Below, one piece after another: positions 1,931 through 52,498 of a DNA stretch of 64,000 nucleotides. Made by a program: the position numbers and the translations under genes. Location: contig OZ243932.1 of NCBI GenBank assembly GCA_965214035.1, positions 1,007,992 through 1,071,991 of the forward strand, read 5' to 3'. Positions within the stretch are counted from its first letter, which is position 1, and the number at the start of each line of letters is the position of its first letter. Source of the stretch: Gammaproteobacteria bacterium. GTDB taxonomy: Bacteria; Pseudomonadota; Gammaproteobacteria; JAJDYQ01. The notes below the pieces were generated by a model that ran no database searches, was not told the origin of the DNA, and saw nothing but the letters and a program-made list of their open reading frames with translations.

Positions 1931-2875
1931 CTACAGCAATGACAGCTGAAACGAAGACAGTTCACTTTCTGCTTCACCGGTTGCAACACCTTTCAACCTT
2001 TCCAATGACCTCGAATGATATTCCAGATTAGCCTCGAAACCGATAAATGCTCTATCCAGCATTCTGGCAGCTAACGCCGTTGTCCCACTGCCCATGAATG
2101 GATCAAGCACGATCTGATTTTCCCTTGTTGTGAGTTTGATGAGATATTTGATCAGGGCTAATGGTTTCTGTGCCTCATGAATTCTTGTCTCATTTTTGCC
2201 GAAACCAAACTCAGGCATATTGGTGGGACTCGATCCATTAAACTGGCATTCACCTGTATTCATGGCACCCACTTCGTTTTCAAGGATATTGTCTGTAATG
2301 GTGCCGCCGACTTTATAAGGTTTCATGAACCATGCTATGGGTTCCCAGACAGGTGCAAGATTACCGAGTCGCCAGCCTTTCCATTTTTCAGCCTCTTTTG
2401 TTAAGCCTCTGCGTTGCAGAACAATACTGACCCTTTGTGCCCGATGATGGGCAGATGGTTTTTTCCACGCCAATGTATCCTTCAAAAGAAATCCACTATC
2501 TTCAAACGCATTGATCGCTCTATGAATGGTTCTTCTTGCACCAAACACCAATAAAAAAGAACCATTCTTCATTTTCGGATAAATTTTAGTCGCCCAGGCT
2601 TTGCACCACCCCTGATATTCCAATCCGATGTTTCTATCGGCCTGTGACCAACCATTAATTGGTTTGCCTCTGCGTTTAAATCCCGACTTTCCCTTTTGTG
2701 CCGGCGATTTTCCAAGCAGAGCAGAATTCGTATTGCTATGCAGCACATCCCAGTCATCCAGGCTGATTCCATAGGGAATATCCGATAAAAACAGATCGAT
2801 ACTACAATCGTCCAGGTCAGGCAAGTACTGCAGGCAGTTGCCTAAAGTTATTTTATTAATGTAATCACTATTCAT
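1931..2875 (-). CDS. Beta-class site-specific DNA methyltransferase (N6-adenine or N4-cytosine)
   Basis: N-terminal motif IV 'SDIPYG' (D/SPPY-like) precedes C-terminal motif I 'DPFMGSGTT'. This is the beta-class amino-MTase order, 314 aa. Confidence 0.85.
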   Translation of the reverse strand: MNSDYINKITLGNCLQYLPDLDDCSIDLFLSDIPYGISLDDWDVLHSNTNSALLGKSPAQKGKSGFKRRGKPINGWSQADRNIGLEYQGWCKAWATKIYPKMKNGSFLLVFGARRTIHRAINAFEDSGFLLKDTLAWKKPSAHHRAQRVSIVLQRRGLTKEAEKWKGWRLGNLAPVWEPIAWFMKPYKVGGTITDNILENEVGAMNTGECQFNGSSPTNMPEFGFGKNETRIHEAQKPLALIKYLIKLTTRENQIVLDPFMGSGTTALAARMLDRAFIGFEANLEYHSRSLERLKGVATGEAESELSSFQLSLL

Positions 2876-2883
2876 CTGGTTCT

Positions 2884-3731
2884 TTACCCAAGACCCAAAA
2901 GCCCGTTATCGACAATAGAACATATAGCTCGAATTTTGTTATCGAGTTTGTTCGCCTTTAGTACCTCCCTGATTGCCTGCTCTTTAGTAAATCTCATTAT
3001 TCGCTCTCGCTCAGCAGCCAAAAATTTAAGGGCTTCATATCTCGATATGTGAATTGACTCTACAGATGCTTTCTTTTCCTCTTGCCAGACAGCGCTGATA
3101 CTATGATCAAAATCAAGAATTTTCCGATTAACTGCCTGCCAGTATGTATTAGCATCCTTTGATGGATTCATTGACTCCACAGTTCTAAATACTTCATGCA
3201 CCAACTCCATTGCATTATCTACACCACTGAGCATTGCATATCGAGCGAATACTGCAAGGTGTGTGTATGTACCAATTAATACGGACCTCGCTCCGGCTTG
3301 CTGGTATATCTGACTTCTGCGAGCAGGCAGCTGGTAAACCGGGCATACAACCATCGCATAAGGCTTACCATGCTTCCAGCCATCTACTTGCCTGGACTTT
3401 AAAATCCTTTTGATTCTTTGCCGTACGGCTCAATCTGAATGCCTTTGCATCTGCCACAAAGCTGTAGTTTTCATTAACACACTCGACATCAGCTACATCA
3501 GCCCGCTCTGTCAGGACTGAGCTATTAAAGCCTATAGCTTTATAAGCTTCATGTATTACAACATCAGTGTATTTTGAATAAAGCTTTTCCTCACTCGTAT
3601 CGTGGTGATAGCTCTCCGGGATGGCTCCACATAATGGCAAATGACCTAATAGTGCATCAATGCCACTGTCTTCAATTTCTTTATCGATTTCATCCTCGAT
3701 TTTTTCTGCGCCTACTCCAAAATCAGGGACT
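2884..3731 (-). pseudogene. Putative cognate restriction endonuclease, frameshifted, no canonical start
   Basis: Two adjacent same-strand ORFs in different frames (3365..3640 and 2884..3354) lie directly upstream of the MTase. The first carries a PD-(D/E)xK-like segment 'VADVECVNE...DAK'. Its reading frame runs upstream to 3731 with no ATG. Confidence 0.35.
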
Positions 3732-4216: not shown

Positions 4217-4681
4217 TCATGGTTTACTCTGTTGCCTTAATGCTTGAATGGCTTCTTCCAGAGTATTTTTGTCTTTTTCCTTTGACCATTCAGTCCATAT
4301 ATCAATTGTTGCACTAGCAGGCTTTATTTTTGGCTCTGCCATTTTAATTCTGCTGGGTAATAAGCAAGCATCGCCAATGATCAAGCACTCTCCAATATCT
4401 AAAATAGGTAACAACTCTGAAAAGCCTCCTAAGCTGTCAGGAAATAGCCGTTTTATTACATTTTGGTCATCAGGGTTTGTAAGACGCATGGCGACAAAGT
4501 TGCCACATTGACTTAAGACGGTTTTGCTGACATCAGCAGGCCGTTGACTGATAACAATAAGTGAAACGCCATGTTTTCTCCCTTCCTTTGCTATACGCTC
4601 GAAGTTAAAAAGCCCTTTTGTTTCAATACTGTCTTTAGTATTGTTGGGAATATACAAATGTGCCTCATCACGCGGATTCAA
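4217..4681 (-). pseudogene. C-terminal fragment of a HerA/FtsK-like (DUF87) ATPase, truncated at its 5' end by IS remnants
   Basis: 'GVSLIVISQRPADVSKTVLSQCGNFVAMRLTNPDDQNVIK...LPILDIGECLIIGDACLLP' matches the C-terminal half of HerA-type ATPases. The N-terminal ATPase core with Walker A is absent, and an IS30 fragment abuts the upstream edge. Confidence 0.55.
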
Positions 4682-4965
4682 CTCGCAAGTGCAATCTGTA
4701 GTTTGATTCCTGAAAATGCCTCATTAGGCGTTTTAATGCCAAGACATTTTCCAGGTCGATTATTCAGTCTATTCATGGCTTGCTCAATTTCTCTGTGGGT
4801 AATGGTTGTCAAGTCACCCCCCTTTGGAAAGTACTGTCGGATGAGTCCATTGGTATTTTCATTCAGGCCACGCTCCCATGAAGCATAAGGATGGGCAAAG
4901 TAAAACCGGGCGTTGAGCCTGTTCAGGGCGATAACCACGAAGGCCCGTATTGCGCTGAAGCTCAC
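4678..4965 (-). mobile_element. IS30-family transposase, C-terminal fragment
   Basis: 'YFAHPYASWERGLNENTNGLIRQYFPKG...MNRLNNRPGKCLGIKTPNEAF' is the conserved C-terminus of IS30-family DDE transposases. The catalytic core and N-terminus are missing. Confidence 0.7.
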
Positions 4966-5186
4966 GGCTAATGGTGGATCGACTTCAACCTGACATCATG
5001 GCTATCCCGGATTGGTTATGGCCGGCTTTCTTCAGGGCATCAATCCGGTATCGTTGTTCCTGGGTAAGCTGTTTGTATCTCATCGTGCTCCTCTTTCTTG
5101 GCAGAATGGGAAAGCTGTGAATCATACAGCAGCTTACCCTATCGCCAACTCGTCAAGAGTTGCACTTACAAGTTGAATTCAGGCAT

Positions 5187-5645
5187 CTATATTATACAAG
5201 AATAAACAGAAATGCCGGTAGTGTCACAGTTTGAATTTTTCTTCTTATACGGTCCGCGCTTCTTTCCTTTCGGTTCTCTGTTTTCTATCAGATCGACAAT
5301 AAAACCCATATTGTGCAGCGTATCGGTTAATCCCGCTTCCATTGCCGGCGTGACTTTCAATGTCTTGTGAATACGGCAGAAATTATAAAACATGAAGTAC
5401 AGGGACAACGCATGAATATGGTTGTCGATTTTCTGACTGAATGCGTTGGTCAGCCGGGTGAACCGGCGCATACTCATACGCATGGTCAGGTTATGGCGTT
5501 CAACATAGCTGGTTGATACATGCTCAAACTCAGGCCGACCGATAACATGTTCACGGTGTGCGCCGATGCAAGCTGACGGGCTGTAACTCCGTTGTTCATC
5601 CGCCGGCATGTCGCCATACAACTTGACCAACCAGGCATCATCCAC
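5187..5645 (-). mobile_element. IS1-family-like transposase, C-terminal fragment
   Basis: 'YVERHNLTMRMSMRRFTRLTNAFSQKIDNHIHALSLYFMFYNFCRIHKTL' follows the InsB-like pattern R.NL..R...R.T.AFSK plus the C-terminal Y.NF.R.H motif. There is no full-length ORF. Confidence 0.5.
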
Positions 5646-5696
5646 ATCAGAACCAAAAGCTTCCTCTGCCTGCTTGTATGATATGCAGTCACTGTT

Positions 5697-8600
5697 TCAT
5701 TCATCGGCATACTGCCCGTAGCCCAGCCCACGCACATGCGGTTCCTGGTGCAGCAGCAGTCGCAGCCGCGTGAGCTCGGCGACGTCCCACCCCATCGCTT
5801 CTGCCACGGCTTCATCCCAAATGCGGCGCACTTCGCATTCACCGTCGCGGAATTGCGGTACAACCATGTCCTTGGTGTGGTTCCAACAATGAGCCAACCT
5901 GTCAACGAGAACATTATCGGAGAGATCAGGCAAACGGATGGTTTTCAGGCCCGCAGGGTTGTAATTTGGAAATTCCAAAGTCTTTCCAGGATTGCGCAGC
6001 AGTTGCAACCGCCCCGGGGTTGAGTTGAGAAAGACAGCCGCGGCCTTCGCCTGATTGAACGAGATATTCGGCACCGGCAACCAACCCACGCCGACATACC
6101 GTTCCTCTTGTGCCACGGCCGTCAAACGGCCTGTGCTGGTGCGCTGGCCGCCCGTCACCAGCAGGTGGGAGATTTGGGTCACAATCCGACTGGCATTGTC
6201 AGGGTGGTGCTTGCCATCCACGCCGGGAACCTCAATCCATTCATCCTGTGGAACATGCCTTTGGGGCGCTTGATGCTGATCAGGCATGCCTCGAATGGTC
6301 CGTTGGGCCTCGGCGGACTTGGAATAAAAGACCGGGAAAGCGCCCGGTGCATCTGCGTCAGCCTGCCTGAATTGACCCCGCCTACCCCCACCTAACACTG
6401 CGGATGGCACCATGTTCTGTTCTTCCATCCGAAGAAGCGACTTGTGAGTGGAGATATCGAACGCCGCATTGGCCAGTTCTGGTGATCGAAACACCACCGC
6501 CGTCCAATCGCCAGCCTCAATGCGCTCTGCAGACCAGTAAGAGACCTCGCCCCAACCGTCTGCCATCAGCCCTTGTTCACAGTCCAGCAAGCATCGATGA
6601 AAATCGGCAGCCTCACCATCGTCTGCCGGCATTCTGTCAAGATTGATGAACCGCGTTGGCGGCTTGTCGCCGGCATACCACCGACGCATCACCACGATGC
6701 TCTCGTTGATAGAGGTATGCTGGCTCAGGTTGATGTTCTGAGGCTGGTGCGAGGTCAATATGGTGTGTATATGGAAGTGCTTGGCAAGTGCAAGCCGCTC
6801 GCGCTGACCGGATGGGGTCGTGAGCGCTATGGTCGGGTTAATCATCGTCAGAGTTCCATCGGACCGCTCTACGCAGTGGTCTGCAAGACCAACGAAGAGC
6901 GGTCCGATGGAATTCTTGTCCACGAACTCCATCAGACCGGGGTCGGATTGCGTGAGTTTTTGCTCCATAAAGTCGGCGCGGTCGCGCAGAGCCGTCTGCG
7001 TTTCAGCGGGAAACTTCTCGCCCATCTTGGAACGGTTAGTGAACGGTGGGTTCATGATGATAATGCGCGCTTCCTTAACTGCATCTACGGTATCTTCCAG
7101 TTCGGTGTCGTCCGTCGTCTCCCACGTCGCCCGGGAACCGATGGCATCGTCACCCAAGTCCAGCTCGTTCGGTCTTTGCACGATAGCCCGTTGCCCCAGC
7201 AGCTCGAGTGTGCCAGCGTAGACTCGGTCTGGAGCATGCTTGTCGGGACCGTAGGGCATGAGATGCAGTCCCATTCTCCGGTAGCTGACTCTCTGGTTGC
7301 CCGCGGTTAATTGTGATGCAGCCAGTTGTAGCGACACCGGATTGATATCCAGCCCTTTGAGGGTGTCTTCGACGGCAATTTTCTGAAGCTGATTCAGTGA
7401 TTCGTCGTCTGCGCCATTATCGCGCGCCCTGCGCTTCATGTCGGAAAGCATGGCGGCAAGCAGCGTGCCGCTGCCACATGCCAAATCCACAATCTTGTGC
7501 CGCTGCCAGACTTCAGGGTCAGACCAGTCCTGGTCTCCGCAGGCGTCGAGCGTCAATCGCGCAGCGAGCGAGGCGGCAACGGGTCTGGTGAAGAACGCGC
7601 CGTCGGATGCCTGGTTACCCATGACGCGATTAAAAAGCGGCCCGGCGTGGTCGGCGCCCATATCCGCGTAGGTTTCTGCAATGCGCTCGGCTTCCGCAGC
7701 GAGATGATGCAGGGCGCGTTCGAGCCCGGCAGTCTTTCCTGTCGTCTCAACGGCGTAGATGGCCTCAAGGGCGGGTTCAAGCACCGGGCGGAAGTCGTGG
7801 CGCATGATTCGCTCCCACTCCCGGCTTATCTTCTGCACGACATTAGCCTGATTCTTGATCTGGGCGAGGTCGCTGATGCCCGACAGCCAGCCACCGTTAC
7901 TAATGCGCTGGTGCAGCATGGCGGCATTCATCATCAGCAGCGCAGCGATGGTGCAGCCGTCCGCCTGCTCCTTGCCTGTCTCCTTGAGCCGGTCGAGTCC
8001 GAAATGCTGGTTTAGCGCGGGCAACAATTCATCCGCACGCATGTGGTGCGCCGCTTCGGTCACGCTCGATTCCAGTATATTCAGATCGCGTATCACCCGA
8101 TTGTCGCTCAGCCCGGACTTCGAGAGCAGGTTCATCTTGATGGCGCTGCCATGATCTTCCAGCCCGCTCAGCTTGAGCATGAGTTGCCCCTGTTCCTCCG
8201 CTCGTTCCGTGGCGGTCTTGCGGGGTTTGCGATGGCTGCCCGGCTTCACGCGATTACCGCCCTCACCGGTATTGATCATCTTGCCGGCTTTGGCTTTGGT
8301 TCGCTGTATGTTCACAATGCCCCGCGCCTCGCCTGCTTTTGGCTTGTCGCGGGTTATGGAGTCCTCGCGCAGTTCAACCGTTCCATCCTTGTTTTTCTTC
8401 CCTGTGAGGACTTGCGTCAGCTCCACCGCGCTGTAATCAGCGGGTTCTTCACGGATACGCTGTATGCCAGTCGCAGCGCGGGTCTTGCCTTCCAATGCCT
8501 GTTCGACCGCTGCCTGCGCGGCGCCGGGAGGCCCCTCGACTTCGCCGTACTGTATGCGCATGCCTTCACCCATCGCGACCGCCACCAATGTGCGTTCCAC

Positions 8601-10697
8601 CGGCGGTGGTTTGGGAATGTACAGGTGCAAGAGTTCCTCAAGGTTTTCCTCGATACGCTGGTCGTGGGCGCGCAATGCGAGTAGTATCTGTCCCAACTCC
8701 TGCCACCCTTCCTCCGGGCCGCTGGTGCTCAGCCATTTCTCAGGGTCGGCAGAGGGTGGAAACACAATAGGGCAGACGATGTAGCCCAGCTCCTTGTCGG
8801 GCGCGGTCCGCATCGCTCTTCCGACGGCTTGTACGACATCAATGGGGCTCTTTCGAGCTTCCAGGAACGCCACCGCACTCAATGACGGCGAATCCGTACC
8901 CTCTCCGAATATGCCCACATTGATGATGCCGCGAGGGCTCGCCGCGTCAGCGGCAGCCAACCGTCCCTTCGCGGTTTCACGCGCCGCGGCGTTGCTCGAA
9001 GCGTCCAGGTGTTCGAGGCTGTAATCGGATGCGGCCCTGCCGTCCGCGTTCTCGCTGAGCCAGCGTGAGACCCAATCCTTCACGTTATCGGTCTGGAGGT
9101 CCGCCGCCATGTTCTTCGACTTGTCCACCGTATTCATGAAGGCGATGCACGAGCGGATGTCCACTTCTCTGCCTTGAGTCGCTCCGCCCATCGTGAGAGC
9201 AAACGCCAGGCCCCGAAGATAGTCGATGGTCGTCAGCTGGCCGCGCCCTGTGCTTTTGGTGGCCCTGGCTAGGTCGTTCGCCGTCTTGAACGCCTCGGGG
9301 TCGTTGACGCCCATAGCGATGATACGGTAGTCGGACAGCCAACGGTTACGGACTGCTTCCAGGTAGCTCTTGCGGTACAGTTCCACCCCGAAGGTGGTCT
9401 CGTCGTCCATCGAGCGCACTATCCAGTCTGGATTACCGGTGGCGCGCTTGACATCATAGATGCGCGGCGTTGCTGTTTGATAGATGCGGTACGTAACAGG
9501 AAACCTGTCGCTGTCATGGCAAATCGTGAAGTCTCGGAGACGCTTTTCCTTTTCGTTTGCGGCGGCAGACCTGGAGTTCCTGCGCTTTAGCCCTGCCGTC
9601 CTGTGTGCTTCGTCGGCAACCATGACACACGCCCTGACATCGGCGCTCAACAGGGCTTCCGATACCTTGGTGCTGCTCTGGTAAGTGCCAATGAGAACCT
9701 TGATCCCGTTGTCGATAGTGCTCTGGCGCATCCAGTCGACTATTTCGCCGGCATCGGTGGTCACCTTACCCTTCACTTCGGAAGCGCTGACATTACTGTT
9801 ATCGACGGTCGGATCAAGTGTGGTGTTGCGGCGTCCTTCTTTCCTGGGGGCATAGCCCGCCGTGACGTCCGAGCAGACTGCCAGCACGTCCAGGGAAACT
9901 GAAGCGTGTTGCAGGCATTCACGCCTTATCTGGGCAACCAGCGCGATGGACGGACACAGCACGATGGATAGCTTGCCCGGAGGCGTCAGTTCTTCGATGA
10001 TCCGGAGCGATATACGAGTTTTTCCTGTCCCGCAGGGCAGGATGATTCTACCTCGGGCCTCACCTATCGGTAGTCCACCGCTCTCCGAGCGTTCCTGTTC
10101 CCTGAGTATGCGGACACTGTTGGCAACGACTTCGTTTTGCATGCAGTTTTTTGTCTGCAGCCGTTCTTCGCCGTGGGGGTTCGGTTGGCAGTGTTCGCAC
10201 TCCCCGGATGCGGCTTGTGCCTGCCGCTGCTGAAGAAGATCGCTGGTGATGTTGACCAGCTTGAGGGGCTTTGGGTGCATTGATGCTGATTGCGTCGCGC
10301 CACTGGCAAGTGGATTATTGCCATTGGTAACGATCCAGCGCTCGGCCCAGGAGTCTGAACCGGACGCAGCCGCGAATTTGGCTATCTCGTTGCTATGGAT
10401 TGGGCCGCCGCGCCCCTCGTCGTCAAGCCGGCGCGACTTGCACTGGATTGCGATGTATTTCCCGTCGTTGCGACGCACGGCTACGGCGTCTATTCCCACA
10501 TCCAGCTTGGTGGTTTTAGGAAAGTGTTTCTTTCTATCGGGCCACTTGTCCCAGTGCCAGCACTCCGCGATGTCCCACTCCTTTATGAAAGGAGCGGAGT
10601 CCACAGTAATGTCTTCCAGCCATTTGCCATTGGTCTCCTGCGAGTTAAACTCGGCTGTGTCCTTTAGCGCCTTTTCGATGGTCTCTAAGCCGGTCAT
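5697..10697 (-). CDS. Single-polypeptide restriction-modification enzyme with Type ISP layout: Mrr-like nuclease, SF2 helicase-like ATPase, gamma-class N6-adenine methyltransferase, target-recognition domain
   Basis: 1666 aa. The N-terminal PD-(D/E)xK Mrr-like region reads 'KLDVGIDAVAVRRNDGKYIAIQCK'. Walker A is 'ILPCGTGKT' and the DEAH box is 'VMVADEAHRT'. MTase motif I 'VDLACGSGTLLAAM' precedes motif IV 'IIMNPPFTNR' (NPPF), the gamma-class order. About 400 C-terminal residues are consistent with a target-recognition domain. Size and domain order match LlaGI/LlaBIII-type enzymes. Confidence 0.85.
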   Translation of the reverse strand: MTGLETIEKALKDTAEFNSQETNGKWLEDITVDSAPFIKEWDIAECWHWDKWPDRKKHFPKTTKLDVGIDAVAVRRNDGKYIAIQCKSRRLDDEGRGGPIHSNEIAKFAAASGSDSWAERWIVTNGNNPLASGATQSASMHPKPLKLVNITSDLLQQRQAQAASGECEHCQPNPHGEERLQTKNCMQNEVVANSVRILREQERSESGGLPIGEARGRIILPCGTGKTRISLRIIEELTPPGKLSIVLCPSIALVAQIRRECLQHASVSLDVLAVCSDVTAGYAPRKEGRRNTTLDPTVDNSNVSASEVKGKVTTDAGEIVDWMRQSTIDNGIKVLIGTYQSSTKVSEALLSADVRACVMVADEAHRTAGLKRRNSRSAAANEKEKRLRDFTICHDSDRFPVTYRIYQTATPRIYDVKRATGNPDWIVRSMDDETTFGVELYRKSYLEAVRNRWLSDYRIIAMGVNDPEAFKTANDLARATKSTGRGQLTTIDYLRGLAFALTMGGATQGREVDIRSCIAFMNTVDKSKNMAADLQTDNVKDWVSRWLSENADGRAASDYSLEHLDASSNAAARETAKGRLAAADAASPRGIINVGIFGEGTDSPSLSAVAFLEARKSPIDVVQAVGRAMRTAPDKELGYIVCPIVFPPSADPEKWLSTSGPEEGWQELGQILLALRAHDQRIEENLEELLHLYIPKPPPVERTLVAVAMGEGMRIQYGEVEGPPGAAQAAVEQALEGKTRAATGIQRIREEPADYSAVELTQVLTGKKNKDGTVELREDSITRDKPKAGEARGIVNIQRTKAKAGKMINTGEGGNRVKPGSHRKPRKTATERAEEQGQLMLKLSGLEDHGSAIKMNLLSKSGLSDNRVIRDLNILESSVTEAAHHMRADELLPALNQHFGLDRLKETGKEQADGCTIAALLMMNAAMLHQRISNGGWLSGISDLAQIKNQANVVQKISREWERIMRHDFRPVLEPALEAIYAVETTGKTAGLERALHHLAAEAERIAETYADMGADHAGPLFNRVMGNQASDGAFFTRPVAASLAARLTLDACGDQDWSDPEVWQRHKIVDLACGSGTLLAAMLSDMKRRARDNGADDESLNQLQKIAVEDTLKGLDINPVSLQLAASQLTAGNQRVSYRRMGLHLMPYGPDKHAPDRVYAGTLELLGQRAIVQRPNELDLGDDAIGSRATWETTDDTELEDTVDAVKEARIIIMNPPFTNRSKMGEKFPAETQTALRDRADFMEQKLTQSDPGLMEFVDKNSIGPLFVGLADHCVERSDGTLTMINPTIALTTPSGQRERLALAKHFHIHTILTSHQPQNINLSQHTSINESIVVMRRWYAGDKPPTRFINLDRMPADDGEAADFHRCLLDCEQGLMADGWGEVSYWSAERIEAGDWTAVVFRSPELANAAFDISTHKSLLRMEEQNMVPSAVLGGGRRGQFRQADADAPGAFPVFYSKSAEAQRTIRGMPDQHQAPQRHVPQDEWIEVPGVDGKHHPDNASRIVTQISHLLVTGGQRTSTGRLTAVAQEERYVGVGWLPVPNISFNQAKAAAVFLNSTPGRLQLLRNPGKTLEFPNYNPAGLKTIRLPDLSDNVLVDRLAHCWNHTKDMVVPQFRDGECEVRRIWDEAVAEAMGWDVAELTRLRLLLHQEPHVRGLGYGQYADE

Positions 10698-10734
10698 ACT
10701 ATATTATGCCCCATTATTCAGAGATTGACCAACC

Positions 10735-10932: not shown

Positions 10933-11070
10933 ATTGGCTTCTTGGGTTATCTGACGTTACCGACCTGAAAGGCACCCACCAAACCCGAAAAAGCCCCTTC
11001 CACCGTACAACTGAAACAAGACTGGAAACGGGTCAAAAGGTTTGTGCAGGCTCGTAGTGGACTTTTCACA

Positions 11071-11113
11071 AGCAGGAAAAACAAAAATTCGGGGCATTAA
11101 GTATATAATTCCC
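11071..11113 (+). repeat. Dispersed 43-bp repeat, copy A (AGCAGGAAAAACAAAAATTCGGGGCATTAAGTATATAATTCCC)
   Basis: Matches the inverted copy at 51544..51586 with 2 indels. Shorter TTAAGTATATAATTC-like cores recur at 53524-53539, 3731-3742 and 44201-44211. Confidence 0.7.
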
Positions 11114-11205: not shown

Positions 11206-11430
11206 TCATGCATGGTTTTTGATGACCAGCGTCTTGATCATCGATGTACGCCTTTGGCGCATTTGAGATAATACTTGCCGGTTCGTATCAGGCCGCTTGT
11301 GATTGTAATGCCAAAGCCAGCATGCGACAAGCTCCTGCATACTCAAATCGGCATTGTGTGAGTCGGCTATAACATACTGCTCGACATAAGCATTTTGCTG
11401 CGGCTTGCCCGATTCAATAATTAACTGCAT
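11206..11430 (-). mobile_element. IS3-family transposase (OrfB/integrase core) C-terminal remnant
   Basis: 'SGKPQQNAYVE...WLWHYNHKRPD' corresponds to the rve-domain tail GKPxQNAxIERFN...W..YNxERPH. The ORF starts at an ATG immediately after the dinG TGA stop, in the same frame. Confidence 0.45.
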
Positions 11431-29618: not shown

Positions 29619-30956
29619 CTACCAATTCAGCTTCCACTGTGCGCCGACGCTGTGGCGCGGGTTATTATCATCCTGCTCGCGGCGGATGGCCTTGATATCC
29701 AGCTTCGACTTCAGGCCAGCCGGGTTCGACAACAGACGCCAGCCGAGGGTCAGGTCACGTTTCGCATCGGAGGCCGACAGGCTCGCATAGGGGATGCCGG
29801 TGGCATCGTCTGTCAGGGCAAAGCCCCACTCGCCTTTCAGCGTCCAGCGGCTCGATACGGCAGCAGTATGTCCGTTGTCTTCTTCCTCCAGCGCATCCGT
29901 CAATGAATCCGATAACAACCGATCCAGACCACTGGCCGCCGGTGCATTGCCGTACTCATGGCGCAGACTGAACGACGGGCCATAGGCCGAGTTTGGCCAC
30001 GCCTCGTAGCGCAGTGAGCCGGACAGACCCCACTCCTCACGCTCGGCAGCCTCATGCTCCAGCAGATAGCGACCGCGCACATCCACCGTCAAACCCTTGG
30101 CCGGTGTCTGCCAGCTCAGGCCGCCGCCCAGCTCCAGACCAAAGCCTTCGCTGGTATCGCCGCCGTCATAACGCAGACCCAGCTCCAGTTCCGGTGTCAG
30201 ACGCACACCGTCCTCTTCCGGTAACTGCCAGGACCAGGCCAGACCCATGCGGAAACGCTGCGTATCCGCCTCGGTGCCCGCCATGACGCGGGAATCATCC
30301 GCCTCAATACGCGCCAGTGTCAGGCCCGAAATCAGCTCCAGGGTCAAACCGCCCTCTTCCACCGGACGCTCCAGCAGCGTACCGCGCAGACCGGCGGTGG
30401 CCGATAGCTGCACCAGATTGTGCTTCGATTCCATACCGGTTTGTGAAGTCTGAGTCTGCTTCAGGTCGCCCCGCCCATAGCTGGCGGCACCCCACAGTTG
30501 CAGGCGTTCGCTCAGGTCGTAGCGCAGATACGGCAGCATGGAAACCAGCATACCGGACAACTCGCCTTCGTCCGATGCACCCTGCCATTCGCCATCGCTG
30601 TCGCTGTAGGCCAGTGCCAGACCGACCAGCGTCTGACCGTTGTCGCGGTCAATGCCCAGCATGGCCGTGGTCACTTCACCGTCTATGCTGAGGCTGAGAT
30701 CGTCTTCACCGTCTTTGTACTTCGTATAGGCCGCCTGACCCCAGATGGAGGTGCCGTCCTGATCCGTGAATGTGAAATGACTACCACGCAGCAACGACGG
30801 CAGCAGCTTCGGCAGTGACAGGGTGCGTGACAGCTTGCGCGGACGATCCGACGAACCGGCACCCAACTGCTCAATGCCCATCACACTGGCATCCGGGACT
30901 GCCGCGACTGGACAGCAGACGCGCCGCATTGAATGACTGACCGCGCGGCAGACCGT
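29619..30956 (-). CDS. Autotransporter beta-barrel translocator domain, in a separate ORF from its passenger
   Basis: A beta-strand-rich region ends in the aromatic terminal motif '...SVGAQWKLNW', typical of type Va autotransporter barrels. There is no signal peptide. The frame opens at 30956 just after the passenger stop, and the first ATG is at 30929. Confidence 0.7.
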   Translation of the reverse strand, partial: TVCRAVSHSMRRVCCPVAAVPDASVMGIEQLGAGSSDRPRKLSRTLSLPKLLPSLLRGSHFTFTDQDGTSIWGQAAYTKYKDGEDDLSLSIDGEVTTAMLGIDRDNGQTLVGLALAYSDSDGEWQGASDEGELSGMLVSMLPYLRYDLSERLQLWGAASYGRGDLKQTQTSQTGMESKHNLVQLSATAGLRGTLLERPVEEGGLTLELISGLTLARIEADDSRVMAGTEADTQRFRMGLAWSWQLPEEDGVRLTPELELGLRYDGGDTSEGFGLELGGGLSWQTPAKGLTVDVRGRYLLEHEAAEREEWGLSGSLRYEAWPNSAYGPSFSLRHEYGNAPAASGLDRLLSDSLTDALEEEDNGHTAAVSSRWTLKGEWGFALTDDATGIPYASLSASDAKRDLTLGWRLLSNPAGLKSKLDIKAIRREQDDNNPRHSVGAQWKLNW

Positions 30957-30961
30957 TCAGA

Positions 30962-38554
<7,593 letters not shown>

Positions 38555-51543: not shown

Positions 51544-51586
51544 GGGAATTATATACTTAATGCCCCCGATTTTTGTTTTTCCTGCT
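51544..51586 (-). repeat. Dispersed 43-bp repeat, copy B (inverted relative to copy A)
   Basis: The reverse complement reads AGCAGGAAAAACAAAAATCGGGGGCATTAAGTATATAATTCCC. Confidence 0.7.
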
Positions 51587-51729
51587 TACCTTCTGACCAG
51601 CTTCCATCGTTGTTTCAGTTGTGCGGTGGAGGGGGCTTTTTCGGGTTTGGTGGGTGCTTTTTCAGGTCGATAACGGACGATTTGTCGGACAGCACTTTGA
51701 AAGTCTTTTAGCGATGGGCGTTTGCTCAT
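51586..51729 (-). CDS. Small basic ORF (47 aa) with a strong SD, ending inside repeat copy B
   Basis: AGGAGAGAAAAGT-ATG. The sequence MSKRPSLKDFQSAVRQIVRYRPEKAPTKPEKAPSTAQLKQRWKLVRR has its TAA stop overlapping the first bases of the repeat. Confidence 0.2.
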   Translation of the reverse strand: MSKRPSLKDFQSAVRQIVRYRPEKAPTKPEKAPSTAQLKQRWKLVRR

Positions 51730-51821: not shown

Positions 51822-52498
51822 ATGGAAACCGGAGGAAAGATGCCGAGCAAATTCCATAAAACAGGTTCTCAAGAGACAAGTCATTCTGCGGGGAGTCCCT
51901 TCCGTGCTTTTTTGACCCGACTAGGCATCCGAGCAGCAAACACTTGTGAGAAAGGACCGGATTTGAAGAGATTGTCCAATGGTTTATTGAGAAGGATAGT
52001 ACCCAGTCCCGCCATTTTTCGCAGGTATGGATGTGGGATAAATGGCCCCACAATGAGGGGCAACGTGATACAGGGATAGACCTGGTTGCCCAAAAACGTG
52101 ATAGCAGCGAATGGGTCGCCATTCAATGCAAGTTTTATCGTGAAGGCGTGGCATTGCAACGCGATAATATTGACTCATTCCTGGTCGCTTATGAGCAGTC
52201 GCACAACGGAGAAAATTTTGCCGAAGGTATCGTGGTATCGACCACGAATCACTGGGGCAAAAATGCAGAAGCAGCCTTGAAGGGGCGCGATAAACCGGTC
52301 GCTCGCTGGGGGATCGATGTTTTTGAAAACTCCTCTATTGACTGGGAACGTTCTTCACTCGCCTCGCTTCGGAGAAAAGAGACCAAACAACTGCGTGACT
52401 ATCAACAGCAGGCTTTTTTTGTGGTCATTAAAGTATGCTCTCTATCTCACCCGCATATTGCCCATAACCCAAACCACGCACATGCGGTTCCTCATTAG
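51822..52498 (+). pseudogene. Truncated and frameshifted N-terminal fragment of a second Type ISP-like enzyme (Mrr-like nuclease domain only)
   Basis: 'METGGKM..SQET' is followed, after a frameshift near 51930-51950, by 'WMWDKWP...DTGIDLVAQKRDSSEWVAIQCKFY...LRDYQQQA'. This parallels the N-terminus of the 5697..10697 protein (WHWDKWP...VGIDAVAVRRNDGKYIAIQCK). It ends just after the helicase Q-motif. Confidence 0.6.

Follow-up and report, generated by a model that had tools for sequence, protein, structure and literature searches.

The closest described relatives of the gene examined here are the Type ISP restriction enzymes LlaGI and LlaBIII, which are encoded on lactococcal plasmids and combine in a single polypeptide an Mrr nuclease, a superfamily 2 (SF2) DEAH motor, a helical coupler, a gamma-class N6-adenine methyltransferase (MTase) and also a domain for target recognition (TRD). 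Mutagenesis of LlaGI revealed D74, D78 and K94 to be essential for cleavage, and E38 and Q92 to be important (PMC2790908). In a 64,000-nt stretch of gammaproteobacterial DNA (positions 1,007,992 to 1,071,991 of contig OZ243932.1 from assembly GCA_965214035.1; referred to as the window), a chromosomal open reading frame (ORF) on the minus strand encodes a 1666-aa protein with nuclease, motor, MTase and TRD in the same order and a coupler-like helical region before the MTase (Table 1); an identical protein, P0001, is known from a 2.5-Mb contig. This gene is a truncated member of a divergent, uncharacterised clade of the Type ISP kind, and we hold the Type ISP-like identity, the truncation history and the mechanism proposed below to be, taken jointly, probable.

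The nuclease-motor half of the protein most directly ties it to the described enzymes. When compared with PDB sequences via phmmer, aa 64-696 matched LlaBIII (4xqk; 1e-43) and LlaGI (5ffj; 1e-42), and a family profile built on 34 relatives of 29-60% identity matched LlaBIII residues 10-821 (i.e., from the nuclease through both RecA cores into the coupler) at 3e-163. Moreover, the PADLOC REase_MTase model PDLC03597 matched aa 44-687 (1.8e-84). Nuclease motifs I-III are present as E28, D66-x-G-x-D70 and Q85-x-K87, and the five residues concerned (E28, D66, D70, Q85 and K87) are invariant across the family and align with E38, D74, D78, Q92 and K94 of LlaGI, respectively. These matches and aligned residues establish, at the level of sequence, that the nuclease-motor half is homologous to that of Type ISP enzymes.

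Further features by which Type ISP enzymes are recognised were found as well. The SF2 motor, homologous to the LlaGI/LlaBIII ATPase, carries a Walker A motif (PCGTGKT, aa 221-227), a DEAH box (aa 362-365), TATP (aa 408-411) and helicase motif VI (QAVGRAMR, aa 623-630). It is followed in the same chain by a gamma-class N6-adenine MTase, with an X-like motif (GAFFTRP) and motif I (VDLACGSGTLL, aa 1070-1080) preceding motif IV of the NPPY/F kind (NPPF, aa 1216-1219), and then by a TRD. Motif I and NPPF are unchanged in relatives down to 29% identity. Pfam matched Mrr_cat_2 (aa 39-136, 1.8e-11) and ResIII (aa 202-377, 5e-11), Helicase_C weakly (aa 558-631), and N6_Mtase (aa 1029-1126) at 17.7 bits, under its 20.4-bit cutoff. 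The initial annotation of this DNA, made from the letters alone, had proposed precisely such an ORF, with an Mrr nuclease, an SF2 DEAH motor, an MTase with motif I before NPPF and a TRD in that order, and had suggested profile searches as a check; both the Pfam matches and the positions of the motifs bear it out, with the MTase profile staying sub-threshold.

An AlphaFold2 (AF2) model of aa 701-1666, computed from an 82-sequence alignment, was confident, with a mean predicted local confidence (pLDDT) of 85.5 and a predicted TM-score (pTM) of 0.85. A Foldseek search of the PDB with this model was led by BpuSI, BrxX/PglX, CamA and M.BseCI (E-values of 1e-17 to 1e-11). In pairwise fold comparisons, the two values returned were 24.6 and 461 for CamA, 23.3 and 443 for M.BseCI, about 23 and 398 for HsdM (3lkd_B), 22.7 and 605 for PglX, 22.1 and 546 for LlaBIII, 21.7 and 561 for DrdV, 20.6 and 558 for MmeI, and 18.0 and 355 for M.TaqI. 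By these comparisons, residues ~1010-1666 of the model are a genuine gamma-class N6-adenine MTase followed by a TRD, and the MTase fold that the initial annotation expected at residues ~1050-1300 is thereby found. The family profile likewise aligned, at motifs X and I, with further adenine MTases of the gamma class (M.BseCI, 4e-9; BrxX, 3e-7), while the collinear LlaBIII stretches at MTase motif I and motif IV yielded i-Evalues of 530 and 21, insignificant on their own. The MTase-TRD module is therefore best described as a divergent lineage for which LlaGI is no nearer a relative than the remaining gamma-MTase superfamily. Assignment of the whole protein to the LlaGI/LlaBIII type, as first proposed, consequently stands for the nuclease-motor half, whereas the C-terminal half resembles LlaBIII no more closely than it does CamA, M.BseCI, HsdM or PglX.

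Between the motor and a helical coupler-like region, the protein adds a domain of ~120 aa and a disordered basic linker of ~40 aa that LlaGI and LlaBIII do not have. The insert domain adopts a compact alpha/beta fold in the model, for which no PDB neighbour was found, and relatives carry insertions of up to 90 aa after aa 751-756, inside this domain and upstream of the linker. The linker has a pLDDT of ~46-59 (model residues 121-170), and model residues 167-312 are all helices. The profile alignment reaches into the LlaBIII coupler, up to its residue 821, but the insert domain and linker precede the helical region; aa ~866-1010 may be equivalent to the LlaGI coupler.

The C-terminal half by itself has 1830 relatives at the 50%-cluster level (E < 1e-3), of which 379 have E < 1e-30, so that the wider branch to which it belongs is large, as well as uncharacterised; many of its members are 1450-1700 aa long. 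On the Sulfuricystis multivorans plasmid pSTJ1 (NZ_AP018719.1, 29277-32192; locus L084), a "hypothetical protein" of 971 aa stands alone and shares 24% identity with aa ~940-1660, i.e., the MTase-TRD half; it adjoins PRTRC-system genes on this mobilizable plasmid. The MTase-TRD module thus also exists without nuclease and motor.

Like LlaGI and LlaBIII, the family combines a conserved backbone with a variable TRD core and a better-conserved C-terminal part of the TRD. Across 109 aligned full-length proteins, identity with the window protein was mostly 73-99% per 50-aa block over aa 200-1400 and fell to 33-34% in aa 1401-1500. Within aa 1415-1505, pairwise identity was 29-38% in five of six 15-aa blocks (and 0.57 at aa 1460-1474), versus 85% for the motor and 77% for the MTase, while the last ~110 residues were conserved again. 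Variation of the core was uncorrelated with backbone identity (r = 0.10), and ~11 core types could be told apart at 60% identity. A variable core decoupled from its backbone is the signature expected of TRD-core exchange on a constant scaffold, and the alignment indicates that this ~90-aa core is shuffled among relatives on one backbone. The same pattern is known from Type ISP enzymes, whose TRD is best conserved in its guide subdomain (PMC4872093). It supports the earlier proposal that each enzyme carries its own recognition specificity. With ~11 core types on one backbone, the family may offer a compact system for linking a ~90-aa core to recognition motifs via methylomes resolved to metagenome-assembled genomes (MAGs).

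The C-terminus of the window protein sets it apart from most of its relatives. Among the full-length relatives, 77 of 109 extend ~100 residues further (…GYGQYADE, followed by VEVEPADRQRF…WLEWGEANGY), while the window ORF ends at YADE. In the genome loci, a gene for a DUF7689 protein of ~150 aa comes directly after this tail and overlaps it by ~10 nt (e.g., L001 and L003-L010). Tail and DUF7689 gene occur together in 33 of 34 tailed loci (L081 being the sole exception), neither is present in ~45 loci, and no tail-less locus carries the DUF7689 gene. The pairing that characterises the clade, a tail with an overlapping downstream DUF7689 gene, is absent from the window ORF, and neither tail nor DUF7689 sequence was found anywhere else in the window. 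Such a tail and partner have not been described in the LlaGI/LlaBIII literature consulted. By backbone distance, all 23 of the nearest relatives are tailed and the window protein nests inside the tailed clade; its placement indicates that the window copy descends from a tailed form.

The point of truncation coincides with an insertion sequence (IS) junction. DNA homology to the tailed relatives (~82%) stops exactly at position 5700, and the TGA stop is supplied by the junction, beyond which the same frame reads on into an IS1-like transposase, of which the C-terminal ~170 residues remain and the 5′ half is missing. On the simplest reading, codon 1666 was fused by a deletion with internal sequence of a neighbouring IS1-like transposase gene; the same deletion would have removed the ~100-aa tail and, judging from the relatives, the DUF7689 partner. 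The initial description of the enzyme as intact consequently needs qualifying: its catalytic motifs are kept and the ORF is free of decay, while tail and partner gene are missing and the protein ends at the IS1-like junction.

Several observations weigh against reading this gene as a Type ISP-like enzyme that outlived its truncation. Neither single-sequence nor profile searches linked aa 700-1666 significantly to LlaGI or LlaBIII, and LlaBIII ranked only 46th (8e-10) in the Foldseek search. The tail was lost from a protein whose nearest relatives all keep it; since the whole subclade retains the tail, and the tail comes with a partner gene, both may be needed for the enzyme. Furthermore, IS remnants flank the gene on both sides, and the region around it is decaying and contains other defence genes that are dead. 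Elsewhere, ~30% of the otherwise complete family loci in GTDB representatives are frameshifted or interrupted by insertions (L017, L020, L042, L044, L046, L050, L055, L060, L062, L064, L066, L069, L071, L073, L076, L077, L079, L080, L082 and L083), and these are either frequent pseudogenes or long-read assembly errors. Finally, the hexamers just upstream of the ATG make a weak candidate promoter, proposed from a consensus match. No conserved upstream gene or promoter was found when sought: DNA homology to relatives is confined to the coding sequence and begins inside it, at ~10686, so that the upstream region is not conserved.

A rival explanation is that the gene is a recently disabled relic, in which loss of the tail and DUF7689, or of the promoter context, inactivated restriction or the enzyme as a whole, and which is heading for the fate of its neighbours. 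The truncation at an IS junction, the tailed state of the nearest relatives, the near-strict pairing of tail and DUF7689, the flanking IS remnants and dead defence genes, and the disrupted loci elsewhere all favour this explanation, as does a second Type ISP-like gene in the window that is already reduced to a 155-aa stub. Against it, the 5-kb ORF has no internal stop or frameshift, and every catalytic motif is intact. At the 670 alignment columns conserved to at least 97%, the window protein shows six deviations, all of them conservative, versus a family median of five. Moreover, tail-less full-length relatives recur, ending within 1-5 residues of the same point (e.g., P0017, on a 3.9-Mb contig with unrelated genes downstream), so the tail is not universally required. 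We regard the relic explanation as unlikely. Since all catalytic motifs are kept and tail-less relatives occur naturally, the truncated enzyme is probably still able to restrict and modify DNA, and we incline, by a modest measure, towards its being active. On this evidence, the window gene would be a plausible active restriction enzyme that has lost its accessory module.

How such an enzyme would work can be outlined by analogy with LlaGI and LlaBIII (PMC3553950, PMC4666363, PMC4872093). The MTase-TRD clamp would read an asymmetric site of 6-7 bp and, on host DNA, one adenine on one strand would be methylated via NPPF and S-adenosylmethionine. At an unmodified site, ATP hydrolysis would instead drive the SF2 motor downstream until two converging enzymes collide, upon which each strand would be nicked by their Mrr nucleases, resulting in a double-strand break away from either site, at a non-specific position between the head-to-head sites. 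The window protein possesses the domains and residues that each proposed step requires.

It is very improbable that the enzyme is of another type altogether, i.e., a motor-assisted methyltransferase or a BREX/Type IIG-like enzyme whose nuclease has no classical restriction role. LlaBIII is indeed no better a match for the MTase-TRD half than CamA, M.BseCI, PglX and BpuSI are, weak NCBIfam and PADLOC matches to PglX models were obtained, and the only plasmid relatives are distant, the one with inspected annotation being the standalone 971-aa protein, with no nuclease or motor gene adjacent to it. However, the nuclease and the motor belong to one fused chain, show strong homology to LlaBIII and retain all their catalytic residues, and no BREX or other partner genes lie near the gene, either in the window or in relatives.

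Three established classes were considered and rejected. A BREX PglX was set aside because the matches to PglX models are weak and partial and BREX genes are absent from the gene's flanks, both in the window and in relatives; PglX acts within a multi-gene BREX operon (brxA/B/C, pglZ, brxL), and there is no such operon here. A Type IIG/IIL enzyme (e.g., BpuSI, MmeI or DrdV), which cleaves at a fixed distance without an NTP-driven motor, does not agree with the complete SF2 ATPase between nuclease and MTase. More generally, none of the motorless gamma-MTase-TRD enzymes (CamA, M.BseCI, M.TaqI, BpuSI, MmeI, DrdV and PglX/BrxX) has a fused SF2 translocase and Mrr nuclease, and their sequence identity to the window protein is only 10-14%. 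A classical Type I restriction-modification system (HsdR/HsdM/HsdS) was rejected since all functions reside in a single chain; in contrast to that class, the nuclease is of the Mrr type rather than the RecB type and there is one TRD rather than two, and no hsdS or hsdR was present among the neighbouring ORFs scanned.

The family itself is widespread. More than 100 full-length proteins share 64-83% identity across their entire length, and a relative was present in 101 genomes when GTDB species representatives were scanned; 80 loci were retrieved (50-84% identity). Nearly all of these are from MAGs, whose names point to sponge symbionts (Poriferihabitans, Entotheonella, and bins coded RHO, IRC, APA, COS and CAR), and many lie on chromosome-level assemblies. 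They cover Gammaproteobacteria, Alphaproteobacteria, Dehalococcoidia and other Chloroflexota, Gemmatimonadota, Latescibacterota, Rhodothermales, Acidobacteriota and Verrucomicrobiota. Judging by genome names, the clade thus moves between marine-sponge symbionts from many different phyla. In general terms, sponge symbionts have been reported to be enriched in restriction-modification genes and to exchange them laterally (PMC8163846), and the family provides a concrete case of such cross-phylum transfer. The GC content of the window gene (58.7%, versus 51.6% in the remainder of the window and 43-52% in the immediate flanks) fits acquisition from outside. At the nucleotide level, the gene had no matches in complete E. 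coli genomes or in PLSDB plasmids, and a protein-level plasmid search returned only relatives of the C-terminal half at 24% identity. Since relatives are publicly named only "DEAD/DEAH box helicase family protein", and the methyltransferase is missed by Pfam and NCBIfam at curated cutoffs, defence inventories of sponge symbionts will under-count this enzyme.

The DUF7689 protein of the tailed relatives has invariant Y32-N33-C34, H102 and E123-H124 in 26 orthologues, and C34, H102 and the other invariant residues suggest a Cys-His enzyme. For DUF7689 and the tail, Pfam, PADLOC, PDB sequences and the literature yielded nothing beyond the DUF name; together, the two may form an accessory module of this Type ISP-like clade. 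Taken further, the clade could be a distinct two-gene Type ISP variant that circulates, at 50-84% identity, in sponge symbionts from eight phyla or more; in this variant, the tail would dock on, or be processed by, a possibly papain-like DUF7689 (Cys34, His102, Glu123-His124), and the insert domain would add a further function. This extension is tentative and on the doubtful side; if true, the window copy would be a natural experiment on whether the core enzyme persists or is disarmed without tail and partner. The peculiarities of the clade, including the insert domain and the very high cross-phylum identity, were kept out of our verdict on the window gene, because the most distinctive one (tail plus DUF7689) is absent from the window.

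Table 1. Coordinates of the Type ISP-like gene, its domains and neighbouring features in the window
Feature	Position	Strand	Basis or remark
Whole ORF, 1666 aa, ATG start	5697..10697	-	TGA stop at 5697-5699
Mrr-family PD-(D/E)xK nuclease domain, ~aa 20-150	10248..10640	-	Pfam Mrr_cat_2; alignment to LlaBIII nuclease
SF2 helicase-like ATPase motor, ~aa 185-695	8613..10145	-	Pfam ResIII and Helicase_C; LlaBIII/LlaGI homology
Clade-specific alpha/beta insert domain, ~aa 700-820	8238..8600	-	
Disordered K/R-rich linker, ~aa 825-865	8103..8225	-	Low pLDDT and composition
All-helical coupler-like region, ~aa 866-1010	7668..8102	-	AF2 model and profile alignment
Gamma-class N6-adenine DNA methyltransferase domain, ~aa 1011-1350	6648..7667	-	
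Target recognition domain (TRD), ~aa 1351-1666; conserved C-terminal part aa 1550-1666	5700..6647	-	
Hypervariable TRD core, ~aa 1415-1505, presumed specificity determinant	6183..6455	-	Pairwise identity in family
Promoter-like hexamers TGGTCA-17-CATAAT just 5′ of ATG	10703..10731	-	Consensus scan; weak
5′-truncated IS1-like transposase fragment abutting codon 1666	5187..5696	-	Same-frame translation; Pfam DDE_Tnp_IS1 weak
M.HindIII-like methyltransferase, complete, 314 aa	1931-2875	-	N6_N4_Mtase 2.5e-38
HindIII-like Type II system	1931-3640	-	Endonuclease split into two ORFs
HerA-like C-terminal fragment	4217-4681	-	
IS30-like transposase, internally deleted	N piece 4985-5125, C piece 4678-4965	-	
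Transposase C-terminal remnant (…YNHKRP…) upstream of the gene	11220-11400		

The surroundings of the gene agree with the decayed island first described, the HindIII-like endonuclease, the HerA-like gene and the IS1-like and IS30-like elements all being fragments. The HerA-like fragment and the deleted IS30-like element are evidence of IS-driven decay beside the gene. The initial annotation went too far in calling the Type ISP-like gene the only complete defence gene, since the M.HindIII-like methyltransferase is complete as well; with its endonuclease broken, this methylase is effectively an orphan. No tRNA genes or Rfam matches were found in the window, which consequently offers no integration-site or RNA clues.

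The second Type ISP-like relic is a 155-aa ORF at 51971-52498 (+) that matches Mrr_cat_2 (5e-33) and positions 49-181 of PADLOC PDLC03597 (2.4e-38); it is cut short at the helicase Q motif (LRDYQQQA). Directly after it lies an inverted scrap of 18 aa (52440-52493, -) that is 83% identical to the family C-terminus (HQEPHVRGLGYGQYA…). An element of ~160 bp is located upstream of both the intact gene (10955-11113) and this 52-kb relic (51544-51675), in the same relative orientation; the two copies share a BLAST identity of 74% with long identical runs and have no Rfam match. Given the transposase remnant upstream of the intact gene, this element may be an IS end.

Elsewhere in the window, a 768-aa protein consisting only of ankyrin repeats is encoded at 16669-18975, and a 2530-aa ORF with Calx-beta and fn3 domains (29619-38554, -) lies in a stretch with a GC content of ~0.61, beside an autotransporter beta-domain gene. 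Sponge symbionts typically have such features, and the ankyrin-repeat and Calx-beta/fn3 genes fit a sponge-symbiont host.

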